From positions 60,541-124,540 of IMG/VR virus record IMGVR_UViG_3300043438_002264: 64,000 bases of DNA. One strand, 5' to 3'. The notes under the pieces were generated by a model. It was not told where the DNA came from, did not search any database, and saw only the letters and a list, made by a program, of their open reading frames with translations. Origin of the DNA: a virus. Position 1 is the stretch's first letter. The number at the start of each line of letters is the position of its first letter. A program made the position numbers and the translations under genes. Shown here piece by piece: positions 2,414-38,768 of this stretch.

Positions 2414-3572
2414 CGTCTATCCCCAAGTCAACATCTAAAGCAAAACGAAATTCTACTAGGTTTGCAGTATTAGGAATTTTAACAATTGGCAAAGCATCTT
2501 GAGATTTTACTACAGAATATCCCGTTAATCCGTAAAGAGGATTGACAGATGTAGTGTTTTCTAGCCTCAAAGCATCTAAGGCAACGTAGTAATCGTCTGT
2601 TGGATTTCCTACAGAGTCTAATACTGATGCCCAAATTTTAACAACAGTCACAGAGTTCCAAGTAAAGGTTGAACTTTTAACTAAATCTTTTAGTGGTTTT
2701 GTGACTACGACATATCTATTATTCTCAAAGTCTTGTTGACCAGACCCAGTTCCGTTTTGAATATCTACCTGAAGCTGAGCATAGTTTGTTGCAGAGTCGC
2801 TATCTGATGAAGCAAACTCCACCAAAACCTTTACTCTGCTTGGCTCTACACTATCATATGCATTTTTGTTAACTACAGAAAAAGCAAACCTTAACTCATC
2901 AGAAGCAGAATTTCTATTAAAATCAATACTTGCTCCAGTTAAATGTATATGATTTGAACCCACTGCTGGAACCATTCTTGAACCACTTAGAGACAAAGTT
3001 GATTCTCCGCCAGCCATTAAAATAATATTGTTTAAATACCTACAAGATTCATACCTTGTTATCCTAGACTCATTAAGCAGTGTTCTGTTGTCTGCATTAG
3101 TTTGAAAAACTGGTGATGTCTGAATAATATCGTCTGGGTCTGCTTCTGTTCCTAGCGGCTGAGTAATTGTTGGAATTGTGACGGCAGCTGTATCAGTATG
3201 ATATTCCCAATTTTCGGTTCTAGTAAAAGAGTAAATTGGTTTGCTGTCATAGGCTCCTGCAGTTGGATTTGATCCTGAAGAGTAAACTCCAATCTCAGTA
3301 ATTTCATATCTTTCAATAGTTGGAAGCTCTGCAGTTAAAACAATTTTTGATATTCCATTTTCATTGACATACCCTCTTGAAGTAATGGGCACACGAAACA
3401 TTTCAAAGTCTAGCTGCTTTTTATCTAATATATCTTGAATATCATTACCCGTAAAGGCATAATCTATAGCCTTTGGAGTTGCCCCACATCCTAAAGCAAT
3501 GTGCGATGCATAGGCTGGAGCCTGGCCAATTAAATATTTGGCTAATATGTTTTTTCCAACATTAGTAATCAT
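2403..3572 (-). CDS. Tail-tip/baseplate-like structural protein
   Basis: MITNVGKNILAKYL...IALGCG...ITEIGVY N-terminus typical of tail/baseplate proteins. Confidence 0.55.
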   Translation of the reverse strand: MITNVGKNILAKYLIGQAPAYASHIALGCGATPKAIDYAFTGNDIQDILDKKQLDFEMFRVPITSRGYVNENGISKIVLTAELPTIERYEITEIGVYSSGSNPTAGAYDSKPIYSFTRTENWEYHTDTAAVTIPTITQPLGTEADPDDIIQTSPVFQTNADNRTLLNESRITRYESCRYLNNIILMAGGESTLSLSGSRMVPAVGSNHIHLTGASIDFNRNSASDELRFAFSVVNKNAYDSVEPSRVKVLVEFASSDSDSATNYAQLQVDIQNGTGSGQQDFENNRYVVVTKPLKDLVKSSTFTWNSVTVVKIWASVLDSVGNPTDDYYVALDALRLENTTSVNPLYGLTGYSVVKSQDALPIVKIPNTANLVEFRFALDVDLGIDVVS

Positions 3573-4345
3573 GAGACATCCTCTTCATATATTGTATCAT
3601 TAAAAATTTGGCCAGAAGCCATCATCTGGACCTCTATCTCATAGTCTGCTTTTAAATTTACAGTTTCAATAACTATATTTCCATTAACAGAATCAATATA
3701 AACAGATTCTGGGGGTGTTTCATTTGTATCCTGTACAATATGATTTTCCATCTTTATGGCAAAATTCTTAAAGTATATCTCTGCAGTATCTGGAATATTT
3801 ATAATGTTTTGTGGATTATAGCTAATTGCTATATCTGAAATATTTTTAACTGGCTGATAAACTATGTTCTGTCCATTAACAGTATCATGTCTTACAAGGC
3901 TTATTAATTCCTGTGCCCCAATTTTTTCTAAAGTTAATTTTAAGATTAAGTCTATTGGTAAATCGTTTTGATCAACAAGAATTATATCTGGAGATGCTGA
4001 TTTTATAGACTTATCTTCTGTTACTGGAACTGGTTGCGGAACGGCTGGGACTGCGGGTACTGAAGCTACCACTGGACTAGACGGTACAAACGCTCCGCCT
4101 GGATCCATGTTTGCTGGAGAATAAAGCCTTACATTATCTAAAGGTGTAGATGATGGGGTTGATATGCTCACACCTTTTCCAAGTTTTACATTTTCTCCAG
4201 AGTCAAAAGCAGCCCCTCTTTTTTGATTGTTAAGCTCCAGTATTTGATCTGCTAAAGCTCTTTGCTGCTTAGCTGTACCGTCTGGCAATGCTTGTTTAGC
4301 AAGACCAATTGCTTTTATTGGCTGTACTACTTTTGTTTTTGCCAT
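3569..4345 (-). CDS. Minor tail protein, hypothetical
   Basis: 258-aa ORF with Pro/Val linker, coupled to neighbours. Confidence 0.5.
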   Translation of the reverse strand: MAKTKVVQPIKAIGLAKQALPDGTAKQQRALADQILELNNQKRGAAFDSGENVKLGKGVSISTPSSTPLDNVRLYSPANMDPGGAFVPSSPVVASVPAVPAVPQPVPVTEDKSIKSASPDIILVDQNDLPIDLILKLTLEKIGAQELISLVRHDTVNGQNIVYQPVKNISDIAISYNPQNIINIPDTAEIYFKNFAIKMENHIVQDTNETPPESVYIDSVNGNIVIETVNLKADYEIEVQMMASGQIFNDTIYEEDVS

Positions 4346-30872: not shown

Positions 30873-31328
30873 TTAGCATCTGACGCATTCCGCCCACATG
30901 CCACAGCTTCCGTCTGCATAGGTAGTACAAATAAACCCTCCAGTACATGAAGGCTGCTGATATAAGATGGTGTATAAAGATGGGCAGGGTGCAGGTGCAA
31001 AGCTGAATGGTGCAAAAGAAAATGTTGTTGTTATTTGAACAGAATACGGAGACCAATCTCCTAAGCCAACTGCATTTTGTGCACGTACACGATATTTCTG
31101 GCCAGTTCCAGCTTCTTGCGATACAATAGCAGATGTGCTTACCGTTGTTCCACTCTTGCCGTCATCACTTTCCCAATAATAAAGTAAAATTGGGCTTCCT
31201 CCATTATTTGGAGCAACCCAGCTAATGTTATCTTGGTTAGCATTTGGTGAGGATACAGATGGGGCAGATGGGGCGGCTGGGACCGTTAGACCCAATGATC
31301 CAACAAGCCCGCCTAAAATTCCGCCCAT
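30873..31328 (-). CDS. FN3-domain protein with FSFAP motif and Cys-rich tail
   Basis: PAAPSAP...ISWVAPNNGGSPI..Y...YRVRAQNAVGLGDWS FN3 pattern. Confidence 0.7.
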   Translation of the reverse strand: MGGILGGLVGSLGLTVPAAPSAPSVSSPNANQDNISWVAPNNGGSPILLYYWESDDGKSGTTVSTSAIVSQEAGTGQKYRVRAQNAVGLGDWSPYSVQITTTFSFAPFSFAPAPCPSLYTILYQQPSCTGGFICTTYADGSCGMWAECVRC

Positions 31329-32216: not shown

Positions 32217-32816
32217 TTAAAATCCTTTTATTTCCCAGTCATCCCAATTTGTGGCTTCGTAGTCTACCCCAGGCATCCAGGCTTTTCCAACCTTACCTAC
32301 CCAGGCTTCCGAAAGAAATAGGGGGCTATCTTCAATTGTGTTAATTCTATATCTATTTTCTTCATTTTCAACAAAAAAGATTAAGTCGCCTGATTCTAAA
32401 TTAAAAGTTTTATCCCATCCTGGAAAGCTAATAGATCCTCCATTAAAGTCATCGTTCCAATAAATGTAGGATTTATAGGTTCCTTCTGGCTTTTCTGGGT
32501 CAAACTGTGGGCCTAGGCAAGTGCCTGGCTTATACCTTGCAATATAGTGTTTTGAAAACATTGGGGGATGGTATTCATCATTTTCTATACTCTGAACGTT
32601 CTCGTAATATCCCTTAGAGTATTTTGAAAAAATTTCTAATATATCATCTGGCATTTCTCCACGAGTATGCAAATCAAAAACAGCATTGTTTTTTTCAAAA
32701 AGCTCATTGTGAAGCGGTACGTGATCTTCTTTTGTATTAAACTTAATTGACTTAATGTAATCCTGAACAATTTTTACATCTTCTGGAGATATAAACTGTT
32801 TTACTAAATGTATCAT
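32217..32816 (-). CDS. 2OG-Fe(II) oxygenase-like protein, metal ligands apparently lost
   Basis: RYKPG..LGPQFD...YWNDDFNGGSISF...GDLIFF prolyl-hydroxylase-type scaffold lacking HxD...H. Confidence 0.6.
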   Translation of the reverse strand: MIHLVKQFISPEDVKIVQDYIKSIKFNTKEDHVPLHNELFEKNNAVFDLHTRGEMPDDILEIFSKYSKGYYENVQSIENDEYHPPMFSKHYIARYKPGTCLGPQFDPEKPEGTYKSYIYWNDDFNGGSISFPGWDKTFNLESGDLIFFVENEENRYRINTIEDSPLFLSEAWVGKVGKAWMPGVDYEATNWDDWEIKGF

Positions 32817-32962
32817 TTAAAGCTCATTCTGCTGCCATGAGAACGATTGTCTGGGCCGCAGGAGGTACAGGAAGAAAGCTTAGCCCCTGTAACGGGACAA
32901 GATTCAACAACTTTTTTATGATTAAACAAAAAACATTTTAAATTTTTAATAAAATTATGCAA
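32813..32962 (-). CDS. Small Cys/His (zinc-finger-like) protein, not in ORF track
   Basis: TTG start; MHNFIKNLKCFLFNHKKVVESCPVTGAKLSSCTSCGPDNRSHGSRMSFK; overlaps both neighbours. Confidence 0.55.
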   Translation of the reverse strand: MHNFIKNLKCFLFNHKKVVESCPVTGAKLSSCTSCGPDNRSHGSRMSFK

Positions 32963-33608
32963 GAGGTATCCAATGCTGTTCTTGTGTCATGCCAATTTCA
33001 TTTTGAAGTCCCCTAAGAGGTAAGACATCGTAGGCAACGCTTATTCTTGGACCTTCCCAATCCCAATCGCCCATTGCGTGTGGATGCCCCATTTCTGATA
33101 AAATTGCACGATTATTTTTATTATGATTTTCTATTTTTTTATCAAAAGTGACGTAATGGGTGACAGATGGCTCTGCCGAAACACAGTAATATCCATGAAA
33201 AAATGGAGCACCCTCTGCTCCGTGATCGTGCCAATCAAGTTTTCCTTTATGAGCTTCATTAATATTAAACCAGCCCTGAAGCATAAATTGCTGTTTCTCA
33301 AAGTCTATATCGTAGTAATCGCAGGCTTCGTGAACCATCGTAGATATTCCATCATAAAGTTTTCTAATTCCATCAATATGAAATTGAAAAACATTATACT
33401 CTCTCCACTTAATTGTAGAAAGGCTATTAGACTCTAGCCAAAGTTCTTGGTCATGAATTTTTGTGACTCCAGGAACTTCGATTTTTTTTATTTGCATATA
33501 TCGGTCTACAAGCTCTCCTGAAAGTTGCTCTAAATCATTTTCTAAAAATATATCAAAAAATTTATGTGGTTGTGTAGATTTGCTTACGCTTTTAATTTCA
33601 TTATCCAT
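32955..33608 (-). CDS. Putative 2OG-Fe(II) oxygenase
   Basis: WFNIN...WHDHG...HGYYCV...HPHAMG...RISVAYD double-stranded beta-helix motifs. Confidence 0.7.
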   Translation of the reverse strand: MDNEIKSVSKSTQPHKFFDIFLENDLEQLSGELVDRYMQIKKIEVPGVTKIHDQELWLESNSLSTIKWREYNVFQFHIDGIRKLYDGISTMVHEACDYYDIDFEKQQFMLQGWFNINEAHKGKLDWHDHGAEGAPFFHGYYCVSAEPSVTHYVTFDKKIENHNKNNRAILSEMGHPHAMGDWDWEGPRISVAYDVLPLRGLQNEIGMTQEQHWIPLA

Positions 33609-33666
33609 ATTTCATGCCCTTCTTTTACGATAATTTTGTATAATAATTATACACTATAAAGTTTTA

Positions 33667-35022
33667 TTAGCAAGCAATTATGTCGCCAGCTATAAAGGTA
33701 TTGTCTCCGTCTGGCGTAATTAAATAAACAGTTTCCTCAATATTATCAAGAATTTGAACATCTTCAATAAGTACCTCTTCGAATTCTTCTTCCAAAGGGT
33801 TGTACTGCATAACTATATCTCCAGCAGCAATTGTGCCAGTTATTTCCCAAGCAAAAGTTTCAGTACCCTGTTTTTTTGCAAGAATGGGCTGAAGTTTTGA
33901 AAAGTGCTTTTTTGCATCAGAATTAAAAATTATTGTGTCTGTTACAACTTTAGAGGAAATGTCTTTTACATAAGCAAAATTGTGTTTAAGACTAGTTATC
34001 TGCTTATAAAAAACTTTTTCATGTTGATAGTCTAAATAGTCGTCGACATCAAACTCTTCCCAAATAGGACAGATTAGTTTATCTCCAATTTTAAGGTCTT
34101 CAGCTGCAACAAGAACAACCTCAAGGTAGTCATTTATTGTAGATATTTTAGTTTTTGATGCAATGCAGCTTGGAGCAAATCCAAAAGCCCTAAATGGGGC
34201 AAATCCAAAAGCATTAAAAGGATAGAAGTAAAATGGAGAAAAACTAAAAGCCATAAAAGGAGAAAAACCAAAAGCATTAAACGGTGAAAAGCCAAAAGCC
34301 ATAAAAGGAGAGAAACCAAAAGCACTAAACGGTGAAAAGCCAAAGGCTCCAAAAGGAGAAAAGCCAAAAGCTCCGAATGGAGCAAAAGAAAATGTAGTTG
34401 TAATAGAATTGGATGCTGCAGAAGCTAGAGAGTTTCCATTTGCATTAATAGCATAAACGGTATAAGTTTGTGCTGTAGCTGCTTCTTGGTTTACAGTAAC
34501 AGAAAGGTTAGCTGTTGGTCCACCTCCTGGAGTACCTCCAGCAAGGTTTGTCTTGCCATCAGAGGCTGTCCAAATATATCCTGTAATAGTTTTTCCGCCA
34601 GTATTTGGTGCAAGCCAGACAACTACGTCTTGGTTTGCATTTGGAGAAGACGCTGTTGGAGCTGCTGGAGTCGCTGGAACGGTAGTGATTAGTGTAGCTG
34701 TGGATGGATCACTGGGGGCACCTTCATCGCCTTCGCTATTAAATCCTGTTACAGTAAAAGTATATAAAATATTTGACTTAAGACCTGTAATAATTATTGG
34801 AGAAGAAGCTCCAGTGGCAGTTACGGTAGTTTCTCCAGCACTTGCCGCATAAATTTTATAGGAAACAGCTAGGTCTACAGAACTAAATTCAACAACTGCA
34901 GAACCATTGTCAAAAGGTCTATCTGTTCCTACATCATTTGCTGTTGGTGGACCTGGTGGTAGTGGAATTAGGAAATCATTTGCCGCTAGGGACTTTCTAC
35001 CAGTTCTTTTACTTACCGCCAT
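33667..35022 (-). CDS. FN3-repeat protein with Phe-rich octapeptide repeats and C-terminal Hint-like domain
   Basis: Two FN3-like domains, about 9 (xAFGFSPF)-type repeats, then CIASKTKI...AEDLKIGDKL...VYLITPDGDNTFIAGDIIAC. Confidence 0.75.
   Translation of the reverse strand: MAVSKRTGRKSLAANDFLIPLPPGPPTANDVGTDRPFDNGSAVVEFSSVDLAVSYKIYAASAGETTVTATGASSPIIITGLKSNILYTFTVTGFNSEGDEGAPSDPSTATLITTVPATPAAPTASSPNANQDVVVWLAPNTGGKTITGYIWTASDGKTNLAGGTPGGGPTANLSVTVNQEAATAQTYTVYAINANGNSLASAASNSITTTFSFAPFGAFGFSPFGAFGFSPFSAFGFSPFMAFGFSPFNAFGFSPFMAFSFSPFYFYPFNAFGFAPFRAFGFAPSCIASKTKISTINDYLEVVLVAAEDLKIGDKLICPIWEEFDVDDYLDYQHEKVFYKQITSLKHNFAYVKDISSKVVTDTIIFNSDAKKHFSKLQPILAKKQGTETFAWEITGTIAAGDIVMQYNPLEEEFEEVLIEDVQILDNIEETVYLITPDGDNTFIAGDIIAC
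34168..34392 (-). repeat. 24-bp coding tandem repeat (xAFGFSPF)n
   Basis: Periodic units such as aaaaggagaaaagccaaaagc on the plus strand. Confidence 0.85.
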
Positions 35023-35037: not shown

Positions 35038-35724
35038 CTAAGCTTCTAGGTCTCCGAATAGCACCCAGCTATTTCTAGACCTCTTAAATATTGTACCAGA
35101 TGACCACTTAGTTCGTAGCTTATTTCCTGGAGTAAAAGCTAATCCAACCTTAAAAGTTAGTGTACCAGAAACTTGATCAGAAAACGGAGTATCTACTGTT
35201 ACTTCTGTTCCATTTGTACTAACTACTAAAGTTCCTGGAACAATTCCAGTACCAGAAATTCCCTGTCCAGCTTCAACGTTTAAGTTTTGTGCTGAAAGAG
35301 TAACGGTTATTCCACTAGATGATCCTCCAGAACCATAAGTGGAGGTTGTAATTGGACTTGAGGTGACAGTAACTTGTCCAGAATTAGCTTGTAGAACATC
35401 TAAAGATGAACCTATTGGAAAATCTACTTCCTGGTCTGTTGGAATAGTTAGAACAATTGGCAAAGTGCTGTTCATCTCAATCAGACAATCTCTTTCATTA
35501 AGACTTGATAATGTATATGCAGATGTTTTTCTAATTATAGTAGTTCTAGATACAACGCCCTCTTTTGTCTGAAATCCGTCAGTAAATTTAATACCATCGC
35601 TTGGCAAAACTGGTGGATTGGTAAAAACAGGATTAGCAGTAGATGCCTTAGAGGTTAGGTCTGCAATAAGGTTGAGAACCTTCTCTTGACTAATCTCGCT
35701 TACTTTAGCTTTGTTAATTGGCAT
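35038..35724 (-). CDS. Fibre adaptor-like protein
   Basis: Shares the TIP...FPIG...WVLFGDL domain with 31328-32191 and 44699-45334. Confidence 0.6.
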   Translation of the reverse strand: MPINKAKVSEISQEKVLNLIADLTSKASTANPVFTNPPVLPSDGIKFTDGFQTKEGVVSRTTIIRKTSAYTLSSLNERDCLIEMNSTLPIVLTIPTDQEVDFPIGSSLDVLQANSGQVTVTSSPITTSTYGSGGSSSGITVTLSAQNLNVEAGQGISGTGIVPGTLVVSTNGTEVTVDTPFSDQVSGTLTFKVGLAFTPGNKLRTKWSSGTIFKRSRNSWVLFGDLEA

Positions 35725-35741
35725 CTACATACCCTTCCTAA

Positions 35742-38700
35742 TTAAGCCTGAGCTTCAGTCCAGGATAATCTTCCAAGAATGTCGATGGAGGATCCTCCAG
35801 CTGTGTTTAGGTTTGTAACCACAATCGTAAGAGTGTCTGGTCCATCTGGGTAAAGCTGGGTAGCTGAAGATGTACTTCCTCCACCAAGAATTGAGTTTCC
35901 AAGATCTCTCAACTGAGTTAAATCAATCGAATCAGTTCCTTGAGACAAGAAACCACCAGTAATTTCTCCACCAGTAACGGTCACGTTAGATGCACTTGGA
36001 TAAACTGCAATTTGTGAGAGAGATGAGTTTGCAATTCCTGCTGCACCTTCTGTTGGGGTTGTCCAAGTTGCAGCTGATGATGGTGTTGCATTAAGGAATG
36101 CTCTAACCAAGTAGTTGGAGCTAGATGTTCTTGTAGAAACACCAAGAGTATTTAGCTTTAGCTGCATTCTGTTAATTAGATCACGCTGACCAAATGCTGC
36201 TGCAATACCATTATCTGCTGATGGAGCTACACGAATTGCAAATAGTGCACGAGAAGCTTGTGCTGGAATTACGGTTGGAGTTGTCATTCCGTAGGTAAAG
36301 ATAAGAGACTTATCGTCATCAAATCCTCCATCCATAATTACTGAGGTACCCCAGTGAGAAAGGCTTGGTCCATAAGATGGAAAAGCTAATTCTACAGATG
36401 TTGGAGCAGTAACCGAATAAGCAAATGTCTCAGCAGCTGAAGCTCCCATAGGGGAAATCAAAACATCTGTTGGGTTTGCTCCTGTAGCAGCATTGCTTAG
36501 TCTAACAGAGTTATTAGATACATTAATATTTGTGATATAAGTTCCTTCTGGAATTGATGCAGAGTGAACTCTCATACCGACCTGAAGAGCACTGACGCTT
36601 GTTAAAGTTCCTGAGTTTGACCCAGCAGCAATCGTCATAGTTGCGGCTGTTGTAATTCCAGCTTTAGCTCTTGTTAAGTTAAGGAATGAGTCTGCATCAC
36701 GTGAAGAATAGTTCACATATTCTGTGGTCGATCCATTTTTAATAAGCAAAGTTCCTACATTGGGGAATCCTGCAGTGCTTACAACAGAAAGGCTTGTGTC
36801 TAGTGCACCTATAAGTGCTGTTGTTTGAGTGATAGGCTGTAAGGCAGAAGATTCATATCTTGCTGGCAAGTTACCAGAACGCATGTAGGCTTCTTGATTA
36901 ATGTTATTGTTTTCCATCTTGTGGACGTAGGTAACTTCTCCGTTAATTCCTCTTACACCCCAACGAACATATCCAGCACCGTACCATGAGTAGTCGATGT
37001 AGAACATCTGCATTTTAGTTAGGTCTATGTTAAATCCAGAAGGTCCAGTTCCATCAATCTTGTCAATGTTAAACTGTGATTGGGGGATTCTAGTTTCTAC
37101 TGTTTTTGATGCAACAACATGTGTAGCAGTTGCTCCACGGTATGTAGGGGATATTGACAATGATGTGTCCGAAGCAATTCCTTCTATCTTGTAAGACTGT
37201 CCACGAAGAACGATATAATCTCCGATTGATAACTGCTTAGCAAATGATGTTGGGAATGATGCATCTGTCTGAGATACAGTAGAAGATCCATTTGTGACAG
37301 TTACACGGCCAGAAATCTGGAACGTAGAGTTTCTACGAACTGCCGATAATACCTGACCATCAAATTCCCAGAAAAGTCCATTTTGCTGGTCAAAGCTTCC
37401 TAGTCTATTTACTGCTCCATACCAGCCATTAATTGCTGCATAGTATGGGCCAGTTCCTACGGTTCCAACTGGTTCTGATAGCATTGTATACTGGAATGTA
37501 TTAAAACCAGTTACAGAAGTAATTTCAAAGGTTCCGTTGTAAGCTGCATCAAGACATCCAGCGATTGTTACGCTAGTTCCTGGCTGAATGTTGTGTCTTT
37601 CTTTTGTCAATACCGTTGCAACTAGTCCAGATGATGTAATTGAATCTAGCTGTAGGTTTGGCTTTAGAATAGTTCCAGAGGAAATCTGAATACCCTTACC
37701 AGACTGGTAGCGGAAATAACGTCTAGTCTGACGAATTAGCTGCTCTCCATTAGAACTTGAGTTTGATGAAAAGATTACTCCTCCATCGAATGGACGGTGC
37801 AGTACCTGTCCCTGTGGAACAACATAGATAAGTACGCTAGTTGCGGCCAGAGTTCCAGTTGGAGCTGCGTTAACATAGTATTTAAAAACTGTTGGGCTAA
37901 TTACTGTTGAAACAATCTGAGTTCCATTTGGAGCATTAGTAGATGCTGTTGCACCAATTACTGCAATTTCATTTCCAATAGAAAGACCGTGTGGAACAGT
38001 TGTTGTTACTGTAATCTCACGACCAGAGTAAGTCATTGTTGGTGCTCCACCAATTCTTGCTGATGAATAAACGTTTCCTTCATAAACAGCTGTCTTATTT
38101 GGATCAAGAATATTTGTAATTGATGTAGTGTTTGTGGCTCTAGCAGTATAAGTAATTTCTCCAGTTCCACCACCTGACTCAATAATAAAGTTACCGTTTG
38201 CAATTGTTAAAAATGCGTCCTGAACATAAATTGCAGAACCGTTAGCTGGGAAGTTTCCAGAAGATCTAGTAACTGTCACTGTTCTTGAGCCATTGCTCAT
38301 TGTCATTGCAGAGATGGAAGTTACTGCGTTTGCACTTGGAAATGCAAATGGTCTATTGTTAACCATGGCGAGGTTTTCCCACTTGGTTTGCTGAGCACCG
38401 TACTCGAAGTCTGTATCAATAAGTGCTTGTGCCTGAGAAACACGGAATTTGTTTACTGGGTCTTTAAGATTTTCGGCTGGAGCCATAGTCTCGTCTACCT
38501 GGTCAACAATAAACTGAAGCTTGTCAGTAGATAGCATTGCTGCTGTATTAAAGTTTAAGGTAATAGTGGTAGTTCCAGTTGCACCAGAAATAGAAGTTGT
38601 ATAGGCTGTTGCTTTTAGTGAAGGATCAGAGAAGTTATAAATTACCTGTCCCGCAGTTACGTTAGTAATAAGAATAAGCTGTTCTTGCTTAATAATTCCT

Positions 38701-38768
38701 GGGTATGTGATAACCCTAGTAGATGGATTAAGGGTATATCCTTTTAGATCCAAAATTCTTCTTGCCAT
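35742..38768 (-). CDS. Large virion fibre/spike protein with repeated small beta domains
   Basis: 1008 aa, Thr/Ser/Gly-rich; TVTTTVPHGLSIG and ERHNIQPG repeats. Confidence 0.6.
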   Translation of the reverse strand: MARRILDLKGYTLNPSTRVITYPGIIKQEQLILITNVTAGQVIYNFSDPSLKATAYTTSISGATGTTTITLNFNTAAMLSTDKLQFIVDQVDETMAPAENLKDPVNKFRVSQAQALIDTDFEYGAQQTKWENLAMVNNRPFAFPSANAVTSISAMTMSNGSRTVTVTRSSGNFPANGSAIYVQDAFLTIANGNFIIESGGGTGEITYTARATNTTSITNILDPNKTAVYEGNVYSSARIGGAPTMTYSGREITVTTTVPHGLSIGNEIAVIGATASTNAPNGTQIVSTVISPTVFKYYVNAAPTGTLAATSVLIYVVPQGQVLHRPFDGGVIFSSNSSSNGEQLIRQTRRYFRYQSGKGIQISSGTILKPNLQLDSITSSGLVATVLTKERHNIQPGTSVTIAGCLDAAYNGTFEITSVTGFNTFQYTMLSEPVGTVGTGPYYAAINGWYGAVNRLGSFDQQNGLFWEFDGQVLSAVRRNSTFQISGRVTVTNGSSTVSQTDASFPTSFAKQLSIGDYIVLRGQSYKIEGIASDTSLSISPTYRGATATHVVASKTVETRIPQSQFNIDKIDGTGPSGFNIDLTKMQMFYIDYSWYGAGYVRWGVRGINGEVTYVHKMENNNINQEAYMRSGNLPARYESSALQPITQTTALIGALDTSLSVVSTAGFPNVGTLLIKNGSTTEYVNYSSRDADSFLNLTRAKAGITTAATMTIAAGSNSGTLTSVSALQVGMRVHSASIPEGTYITNINVSNNSVRLSNAATGANPTDVLISPMGASAAETFAYSVTAPTSVELAFPSYGPSLSHWGTSVIMDGGFDDDKSLIFTYGMTTPTVIPAQASRALFAIRVAPSADNGIAAAFGQRDLINRMQLKLNTLGVSTRTSSSNYLVRAFLNATPSSAATWTTPTEGAAGIANSSLSQIAVYPSASNVTVTGGEITGGFLSQGTDSIDLTQLRDLGNSILGGGSTSSATQLYPDGPDTLTIVVTNLNTAGGSSIDILGRLSWTEAQA

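Follow-up and report, generated by a model that had tools for sequence, protein, structure and literature searches.

A fibre-type phage protein with a Phe-rich repeat and a putatively self-removing C-terminal Hint domain, encoded beside a predicted oxygenase

The IMG/VR virus record IMGVR_UViG_3300043438_002264 is 124,540 bp long, carries direct terminal repeats and comes from an uncultured phage. The stretch analysed here (hereafter the window) is the 64,000 nucleotides from base 60541 to base 124540 of that record, and all coordinates below are positions in it. The window contains a gene for a 451-residue protein with two FN3 domains, a Phe-rich tandem repeat and an intein-like Hint domain, followed by three genes for small proteins, the first of which has a predicted oxygenase fold (hereafter ox217). 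The coordinates of these four genes were verified, and all four lie on the minus strand, as does every gene across 30.8-41.9 kb of the window. The features of the locus are as follows:

33667-35022, minus strand: gene for the 451-residue FN3-repeat-Hint protein (from its translation, Pfam fn3 and an AlphaFold2 model).
34954-35022, minus strand: conserved N-terminal peptide, residues 1-23, MAVSKRTGRKSLAANDFL... (from conservation).
34684-34953, minus strand: first FN3 domain, about residues 24-113 (from Pfam fn3, best stretch residues 54-109, and a predicted local distance difference test score, pLDDT, above 90).
34393-34683, minus strand: second FN3 domain, about residues 114-210 (from Pfam, model pLDDT above 90 and structure matches).
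34168-34392, minus strand: Phe-rich tandem repeat, residues 211-285, with the unit F-G-F-S-P-F-x-A (from the translation and the tandem repeat in the DNA).
33670-34167, minus strand: C-terminal Hint domain, intein-like and of BIL type, residues 286-451 (from fold and profile matches).
32955-33608, minus strand: 217-residue protein with a predicted oxygenase fold, ox217, of an unnamed family distantly like PF13759.
32813-32962, minus strand: 49-residue Cys/His protein, whose gene overlaps the preceding gene by 8 nt and the next by 4 nt.
32217-32816, minus strand: 199-residue protein like a degenerate prolyl 4-hydroxylase (P4H; 2OG-FeII_Oxy_3), from alignment with PF13640 relatives.

The 451-residue protein falls into five parts: the N-terminal peptide, the two FN3 domains, the repeat, Cys286 and the C-terminal domain of 166 residues. 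The original prediction, made from the DNA letters without database searches, had described FN3-like domains, a Phe-rich octapeptide repeat and a Hint-like domain that starts with Cys, ends in GDIIAC and has no C-extein; all of these are present, the repeat as quoted, at 33667-35022. In the N-terminal peptide, conservation across 122 sequences reaches at least 90% at K5, G8, S11, N15, D16, L18, P20 and P23, and identity with close relatives is 78-100%; the peptide probably docks on a virion partner. The FN3 assignment holds in both sequence and fold, with a two-stretch Pfam fn3 match (E 6.2e-8; 33.2 bits, cut-off 25) and matches of the model to tandem-FN3 structures in Foldseek and VIA-align. 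Among the matches listed for the whole model in Foldseek there are FN3 tandems only, and the Hint match was obtained through the wide VIA-align search. The repeat has a period of 24 nt in the DNA, with 6.5 copies at 34231-34388 (79% matches) and another 2.2 copies at 34171-34222, and its F, F and P columns do not vary across 24 sequences. A collagen-like or β-solenoid shaft was considered for it, and the AlphaFold2 monomer model yields no confident structure (pLDDT below 50 for residues 222-283). With three Phe in every eight residues and no confident fold, the repeat is likely to be aggregation-prone, and a soluble end domain that removes itself, or enzymatic hydroxylation, would ease its handling.

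The C-terminal domain begins with Cys286 directly after the sequence GFAPS, and in the AlphaFold2 model, which was built with an alignment of 122 sequences, residues 286-451 have a pLDDT above 90. In a VIA-align search of 48,161 chains, residues 282/286-451 were superimposed on the BIL domain of Clostridium thermocellum (2lwy) with Z 16.0 and a root mean square deviation of 1.9 Å over 132 of 138 residues. The NpuDnaB intein (Z 15.9), the Mtu RecA intein (15.8) and the Hedgehog autoprocessing domain 1at0 (15.7) follow, with the VMA intein and a Tetrahymena BIL domain also within one Z unit of the best match, so by fold score the BIL domains, inteins and Hedgehog are tied. A profile of the Hint family matches mini-inteins as well (Pho RadA intein, E 8.6e-8; BIL 2lwy, E 2.1e-7). 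The predicted Hint fold can thus be taken as confirmed at the level of the model. As to the search against Hint families by hidden Markov model (HMM), proposed as a check in the original prediction, this family profile finds mini-inteins, and the window copy stays below the cut-off of the Pfam family PF14890 (see below). A mobile intein remnant was ruled out by the absence of an endonuclease, a conserved insertion site and a C-extein.

The residues that carry out the chemistry of Hint domains were compared in a census of 217 distinct domains. Cys286 is invariant in the 122 aligned sequences, in which mean column identity is 40%. Across the census position 1 is Cys in 167 domains and Ser in 16, and a non-nucleophile is never seen; the other 34 are unaligned, being truncated open reading frames (ORFs) or members of a subgroup in which block A is followed by an insertion. 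A nucleophile is therefore kept wherever the position is aligned, as the proposal of a Hint domain had implied. Block B of the window copy reads FSKLQP, its Gln aligning to the His of TPSHP (the TxxH of inteins) in the Pho RadA intein. At this position the census has Gln in 140 domains, His in 54 and Glu in 23, and the commonest combination, in 91 sequences, is Gln with Cys1 and a terminal His-Asn. Gln is thus the norm of the family and not a local lesion: the replaced His noted in the original prediction is real, and the weak or absent autocleavage read from it does not follow from a residue that most of the family shares.

At the other end of the domain, 148 of the 217 proteins have His-Asn, 15 have His-Asp and 27 have a terminal Cys as in the window. 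Behind His-Asn there are mostly 1 or 4 residues (within a range of mostly 1-7), usually with Lys first. The window protein stops at Cys451, the position of the penultimate His, with neither Asn nor C-extein, and so lacks the end that intein splicing requires. Loss of His-Asn is a trait of the window's clade. In Hint folds the penultimate-His position neighbours residue 1, and here it is occupied by Cys451 (33670-33672), with Cys286 at 34165-34167; a disulfide or thiol relay between the two is conceivable. A second class of Hint domain also stands behind FGFSPF repeats (L023, L028, L032, L041, L043, L069, L127 and L141) and has Ser1, a block B of S-x-S-H with the canonical His, His-Asp, and a tail of 6-46 residues.

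Relatives of the whole protein show how the C-terminal end is exchanged. A word-index search found 639 relatives of the 451-residue protein, mostly full-length. Two scans of viral contigs were made from opposite sides: one with the FN3 protein, in which 576 relatives were confirmed and 80 loci fetched, and a reverse scan with the ox217 family, in which 387 were confirmed and 80 loci fetched, giving about 160 sampled relatives overall. The FN3-repeat proteins end in a Cys1-Hint, a Ser1-Hint, a short Cys motif or nothing past the repeat. Of 79 upstream repeat proteins in the reverse scan, 46 carry a Hint domain, 32 end no more than 13 residues past the last repeat unit and one has a Cys-rich end. 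Identities are mosaic among the domains (Hint 31-98%, FN3 73-96%), so recombination blurs any single tree. With residues 293-451 as the query, a phmmer search of the full library yielded only 37 representatives of clusters (E up to 1e-3), the match lying at or near the C-terminus each time. Ten of the more distant ones have PASTA domains, fibre-like proteins of 745-932 residues, or nothing at the N-terminus, and in all ten an aromatic/Pro repeat stands immediately before Cys1. That the repeat persists under differing N-termini suggests that repeat and Hint form a portable unit. One of these proteins, P0160 (745 residues), has several FSFTP-type blocks between small Cys-rich modules ahead of its final repeat and Hint, a layout in which the repeat also acts as a spacer between knots.

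Such exchange at one position could mean that the Hint domain is inactive and simply stays on the virion as a distal domain, perhaps binding a receptor or capping the fibre. Its alternation with small Cys-rich ends resembles that of exchangeable receptor-binding tips, it is the fastest-diverging and most mosaic module, and in the window copy both the block-B His and the terminal His-Asn are gone. A mere binding domain would, however, have no need of a nucleophile at position 1, which is Cys or Ser in 183/183 aligned domains at identities down to about 30%, and the 91 sequences that combine Gln with an intact Cys1 and His-Asn show that Gln is no mark of decay. We consider a retained, inactive tip improbable.

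The gene for ox217 begins 58 nt past the stop codon of the 451-residue protein. No Pfam oxygenase family was found in any of the 33/33 members of its family at E up to 10, and comparison of the family with sequence profiles from the PDB gave nothing meaningful (best E 0.57). The model of ox217 is a double-stranded β-helix (pLDDT 91, predicted template modelling score 0.90). In Foldseek its best match is 3bvc_A (E 4.7e-7, template modelling scores 0.62/0.66), and further matches are 2rg4, ThoJ (third, E 7.6e-6), PHD2, AsqJ and a bacterial P4H; 3bvc and 2rg4 are structural-genomics proteins. Among named ESM Atlas clusters, PF13759 is the closest (score 0.96). Residues H127, H129, H138, E146, H175, H177, R188 and D194 are invariant, and residue 128 is always Asp or Glu. 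By its model, ox217 is predicted to have the fold of Fe(II)/2-oxoglutarate (Fe/2OG) oxygenases, which agrees with the oxygenase that had been proposed directly downstream. Among 50,697 phage records, its only relative in a cultured phage is from cyanophage S-RSM4 (22.6% identity, E 4e-4). The S-RSM4 relative (L164, FM207411.1 84399-94926) belongs to an island of about ten small genes upstream of the neck genes g13 and g14. Three genes of the island carry a 2OG-Fe(II) oxygenase-like annotation, and in the 5-kb flanks inspected the annotation lists no repeat protein.

The two remaining downstream genes had been described as a small Zn-finger ORF and a degenerate oxygenase. In the 49-residue protein, C10, H15, C22, C32 and C35 are invariant among 15 aligned homologues (C-x4-H-x6-C-x9-C-x2-C); homologues occur in 31/82 loci, and Pfam gives no match. 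The ORF and its conserved Cys and His residues are real, zinc binding is putative, and the protein might bind metal as a small partner of the enzymes. Where its PF13640 relatives read HxD, the 199-residue protein has QFD, and it has neither their distal His nor their Arg, having lost the ligands for iron and 2-oxoglutarate. Its homology comes through relatives, as L006 matches PF13640 at E 2.3e-10 and the orthologue L061 at 2e-5, and the window copy itself has no Pfam match. Judged from sequence, it is related to prolyl hydroxylases and catalytically dead, so the predicted degeneracy is borne out.

The oxygenase gene is closely linked to the repeat gene. In the FN3-protein scan a homologue of ox217 is present in 60/80 loci, and three of the 20 others have less than 700 nt of sequence downstream. 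In the reverse scan a repeat ORF lies upstream on the same strand in 79/80 ox217 loci, the exception being at a contig edge with 870 nt upstream. Of these repeat ORFs, 54 lie within 100 nt of ox217 and another 24 are separated from it by one or two genes, among them a Sulfotransfer_2 gene (E 1.5e-7) and an Asp/Asn β-hydroxylase-like gene (E 2.9e-12). These intervening enzyme genes of sister phages are found at L090:3224-3949, L136:2726-3397 and 3372-3938, and L055:7299-8556. The presence of oxygenases was then counted by type of repeat in 63 distinct proteins from the FN3-chosen set with at least 1500 nt downstream (L046, L053 and L071 were dropped as shorter). Loci L083-L162, picked by their oxygenase, were used for the reverse question only, and the enzyme family labels come from small HMMs built from Pfam-named sequences and not from Pfam itself. 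The counts are:

FGFSPF-type repeat, 49 proteins: ox217 within 4 kb in 45 (29/33 with a Hint domain, 16/16 without); P4H-like gene in 0.
FFPP-type repeat, 7 proteins: ox217 in 0; P4H-like gene in 7.
PPGFF-type repeat, 3 proteins: ox217 in 0; P4H-like gene in 3.
Tyr-type (YxFTP) repeat, 4 proteins: ox217 in 0; P4H-like gene in 0.

The P4H-like genes beside the Pro-rich repeat types include bona fide PF13640 matches. A quick maximum-likelihood tree was built from the N-terminal parts of 62 rows, L050_630 being left out because its own was short. On this tree presence of the Hint domain changes at least 12 times, with 10 of the changes falling within the 48 FGFSPF-type rows, and among those same rows presence of ox217 changes once. 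Together with the 16 Hint-less proteins that all have ox217, these 10 changes against one indicate that the oxygenase tracks the repeat and not the Hint. Co-occurrence of repeat-Hint genes with oxygenases, put forward earlier as a test, is thus found (45/49 and 79/80) and is tied to the repeat, not to the Hint domain. The repeat, rather than the Hint, is likely to be the substrate of the adjacent oxygenase. Two side observations concern unusual loci: L028, L041 and L050 each have two repeat and Ser1-Hint genes about 4 kb apart and a single ox217 gene 3.3 kb past the second, and the Tyr-type locus L056 has a sulfotransferase and no oxygenase.

Linkage of this kind could also arise if the genes are neighbours only, adjacent by shared descent, with the oxygenase-fold proteins being auxiliary or host-directed, or with ox217 acting as a non-enzymatic assembly partner. 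Few independent contrasts back the link between repeat and enzyme, the distant ox217 relatives of S-RSM4 sit in an oxygenase island with no annotated repeat gene in its flanks, one PASTA-repeat-Hint locus is without ox217, and the 199-residue copy in the window has lost its ligands. Set against this are the constancy of the arrangement (79/80 loci, same strand, typically 40-100 nt apart), the persistence of ox217 while the Hint comes and goes, the switch of oxygenase family with repeat chemistry, by which P4H-like genes stand beside Pro-rich repeats, and the invariant His, Asp and Arg residues of the ox217 family. We judge mere adjacency to be unlikely, though less so than a retained tip.

The reading that we favour, with a confidence slightly better than even, is that the Hint is a cap that removes itself from a fibre tail tailored by enzymes. 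The protein would be a virion fibre-type protein in which the N-terminal peptide and two FN3 domains bear a hydrophobic Phe/Pro repeat, synthesized as a precursor with a BIL-type Hint cap. Cys286 would attack the Ser285-Cys286 bond by an N-S acyl shift to give a thioester, and on resolution of this thioester the Hint would depart and leave a mature FN3-FN3-repeat protein of 285 residues. Such a product would correspond to what sister phages encode directly without a Hint domain. Since the clade has dropped the C-terminal His-Asn, only the N-terminal reaction would matter. The kept nucleophile, the dispensable Asn and the many sister proteins that stop at the presumed Hint cut point all suggest N-terminal autoprocessing, and from these we infer cleavage and its timing. 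ox217 would in turn hydroxylate Pro or Phe of the repeat, the substrate relation resting on gene linkage and the chemistry being that expected of the fold. The corresponding proposal in the original prediction, of a Hint that chaperones and releases or conjugates a repeat modified by the oxygenases, is borne out in part: fold, nucleophile and linkage hold, and the chaperone role, cleavage, conjugation and hydroxylation stay putative.

Several observations weigh against this reading. The window Hint on its own reaches 17.6 bits (E 0.0034) with PF14890 (Intein_splicing), whose cut-off is 35.8; at E up to 0.01 the family is matched by 14/35 aligned Hint members (best 4.3e-8). Block B of the window copy has Gln where studied inteins have a His that helps the acyl shift along, and the Hint is the most divergent module, a pattern that also fits a retained receptor-binding tip. 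The ligand set of ox217 is H-D-H...H-P-H and not a plain HxD...H; its residues come in the expected order, as known from the sequence alone. None of the four (0/4) Tyr-type repeat proteins has any oxygenase gene, and the 4/49 FGFSPF-type proteins without a nearby ox217 come from three loci in which they are encoded by a second repeat-Hint gene and from the sole PASTA-type locus examined. Repeat type against oxygenase amounts to two supported independent contrasts (four on all branches), which are concordant and too few for a test, and conserved synteny among related phages could be the source of much of the raw count.

The thioester might have another fate. In a transfer like that of Hedgehog it would be taken, instead of by water, by a specific nucleophile on the host envelope, a lipid or another protein of the virion, and the end of the repeat would become covalently anchored. 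Up to the thioester this route shares its chemistry with self-removal, the fold is equally near to 1at0, and a conserved N-terminal nucleophile with a dispensable C-terminal Asn is what would be expected if the thioester alone matters. The protein ends with the Hint, however, and has no sterol-recognition-type or other adduct-binding part after it, and many sister phages encode the repeat protein without a Hint, so that a covalent anchor is not essential to the fibre. We give this possibility little credence. Still more doubtful, and offered as speculation, is a maturation line on the virion in which repeat-specific enzymes rewrite the aromatic/Pro tail, the thioester is handed to a nucleophile of the particle or host envelope, and Cys451 serves as a redox latch. 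The enzymes could comprise ox217 for FGFSPF repeats and the P4H-like proteins for Pro-rich ones, plus the Sulfotransfer_2 and Asp/Asn-hydroxylase-like proteins of sister phages. Their chemistry could run from Pro to hydroxyproline or from Phe to hydroxy-Phe/Tyr, with O-sulfation in places. The product might be a covalently anchored, chemically tailored adhesin, with Cys451 next to Cys1 as the latch.

The neighbouring features are:

35038-35724, minus strand: 228-residue protein like fibre and minor tail proteins, upstream of the 451-residue protein (from PHROG minor tail and tail fibre matches).
35742-38768, minus strand: 1008-residue virion protein of PHROG 5838 (from homology to a structural/'fiber' protein of T4-like cyanophages).
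30873-31328, minus strand: 151-residue paralogue of the 451-residue protein, with FN3, FSFAPFSFAP and a six-Cys end (from its translation and comparison of the paralogues).

The 228-residue protein has a homologue in 80/82 loci and shares a weak common segment (E 4e-4) with a 287-residue Mtd_N fibre protein; it is likely to be the partner that bears the FN3 protein. The 1008-residue protein shows 44-46% identity, along its whole length, to the structural/'fiber' protein of the T4-like cyanophages S-PM2, S-RSM4 and Syn1. Despite this match, the phage, at 124.5 kb, has a head and tail gene set unlike those of the T4-like cyanophages. An Mtd_N-type fibre gene is followed by the 151-residue paralogue, whose FN3 domain corresponds to the second FN3 domain of the 451-residue protein (52% identity, E 2e-26) and has the same ITTTFSFAPF junction, a six-Cys end replacing the long repeat and the Hint. 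Genes for portal, protease and capsid lie farther along. The PHROG structural and tail matches and the homology of the 1008-residue protein mark the neighbours as virion genes. A promoter scan gave no excess (14 found against 14.5 expected from shuffles). Terminator-like sites number 8 against 3.8 expected, none of them inside the 58 nt that separate the fibre gene from that of ox217. Neither the region nor the 451-residue protein has a match in cultured phages by blastn and tblastn of the 50,697 phage records.

The locus and its sampled relatives allow a cheap test of the idea that such enzymes decorate the phage's own fibre, and orphan phage oxygenases gain a testable target in the repeat tail. 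If true, a C-terminal module that removes itself would be a third maturation route for phage fibres, after separate chaperones and S74-type domains, and BIL-type Hint domains, whose role is still vague, would gain a defined structural job. A natural Gln in block B and a terminus free of Asn are also material for studies of intein mechanism and for protein-engineering tags.

How does this arrangement compare with systems already described? In a literature survey that covered few subscription journals and no supplements, no account turned up of a phage virion protein whose repeat is capped by a Hint domain, nor of an oxygenase linked to such a protein. Genes for Fe/2OG oxygenases rank with the most frequent 'auxiliary' genes in aquatic phages, and the cyanophage literature, as far as it was accessible, treats them as metabolic genes. 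The Hint domains reported in the accessible text of two phage papers are ordinary terminase inteins (PMC3556154; PMC5259590). BIL domains of type A are outlined as having a conserved C-terminal His-Asn without a +1 nucleophile and as occurring in variable, non-conserved proteins (PMC7765530). Like the BIL domain 2lwy, the window protein combines a Hint fold with Cys1 in a variable, surface-type protein free of a homing endonuclease; its relatives mostly end in His-Asn without a +1 nucleophile, as in type A, whereas the window copy, having lost His-Asn, falls outside that type. Its Hint differs from BIL domains in forming the very end of a phage virion protein, where no payload follows, in having, across its family, an aromatic/Pro repeat always before it, and in a block-B His that is mostly replaced by Gln. 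With the Hog part of Hedgehog (1at0) the window protein shares a C-terminal Hint that would free the N-terminal part through a Cys thioester; unlike Hedgehog, it comes from a phage, has no sterol-recognition region after the Hint and has no known adduct.

Some phage fibres are made with a C-terminal domain that removes itself. These intramolecular chaperone auto-cleavage domains (Peptidase_S74-type) are described for tailspikes and fibres (PMC8326128, in part). The logic of a self-removing C-terminal fibre domain is the same, but the window Hint differs in fold and chemistry, and no Peptidase_S74 was found for the 451-residue protein in a general Pfam search at E up to 1, which was not a dedicated comparison. 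On the side of the enzyme, PF13759 (2OG-FeII_Oxy_5, 'hypothetical cyanophage protein') provides the best Foldseek matches and the closest ESM Atlas cluster for ox217. Its motif order, which we take to be His-x-His ... His ... Arg, would be the same as that of ox217. The two are set apart in that 33/33 ox217 members are under any Pfam threshold, PF13759 itself being without known function.

Hydroxylases of RiPPs (ribosomally synthesized peptides with post-translational modifications) offer a second comparison. CzlI is one such Fe/2OG enzyme, reported to turn a peptide Phe into Tyr (PMC11575548, in part). As with CzlI and ThoJ (6zyk), ox217 is encoded beside a candidate peptide, and ThoJ is among its fold matches; unlike in those systems, the peptide is a 75-residue repeat within a 285-residue structural protein, there is no leader peptide, and sequence similarity is absent. 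The 'RiPP-like' label of the original prediction is therefore an analogy, as the candidate substrate lies inside a 451-residue structural protein and is not the small product released from a leader-core precursor. A viral parallel for prolyl hydroxylation is the prolyl 4-hydroxylase of chlorovirus PBCV-1, which, as described in the available part of its report, acts on viral Pro-Ala-Pro-Lys repeats (PMC3634087). That enzyme is a bona fide P4H of a virus with a eukaryotic algal host, whereas the candidate in the window belongs to an unnamed family and the P4H-like gene beside it is degenerate. What the two share is a virus-encoded Fe/2OG oxygenase, in our case a predicted one, with a Pro-containing tandem repeat of its own virus as substrate, in our case a candidate one, a likeness that extends to the P4H-like genes found with the Pro-rich repeat types.

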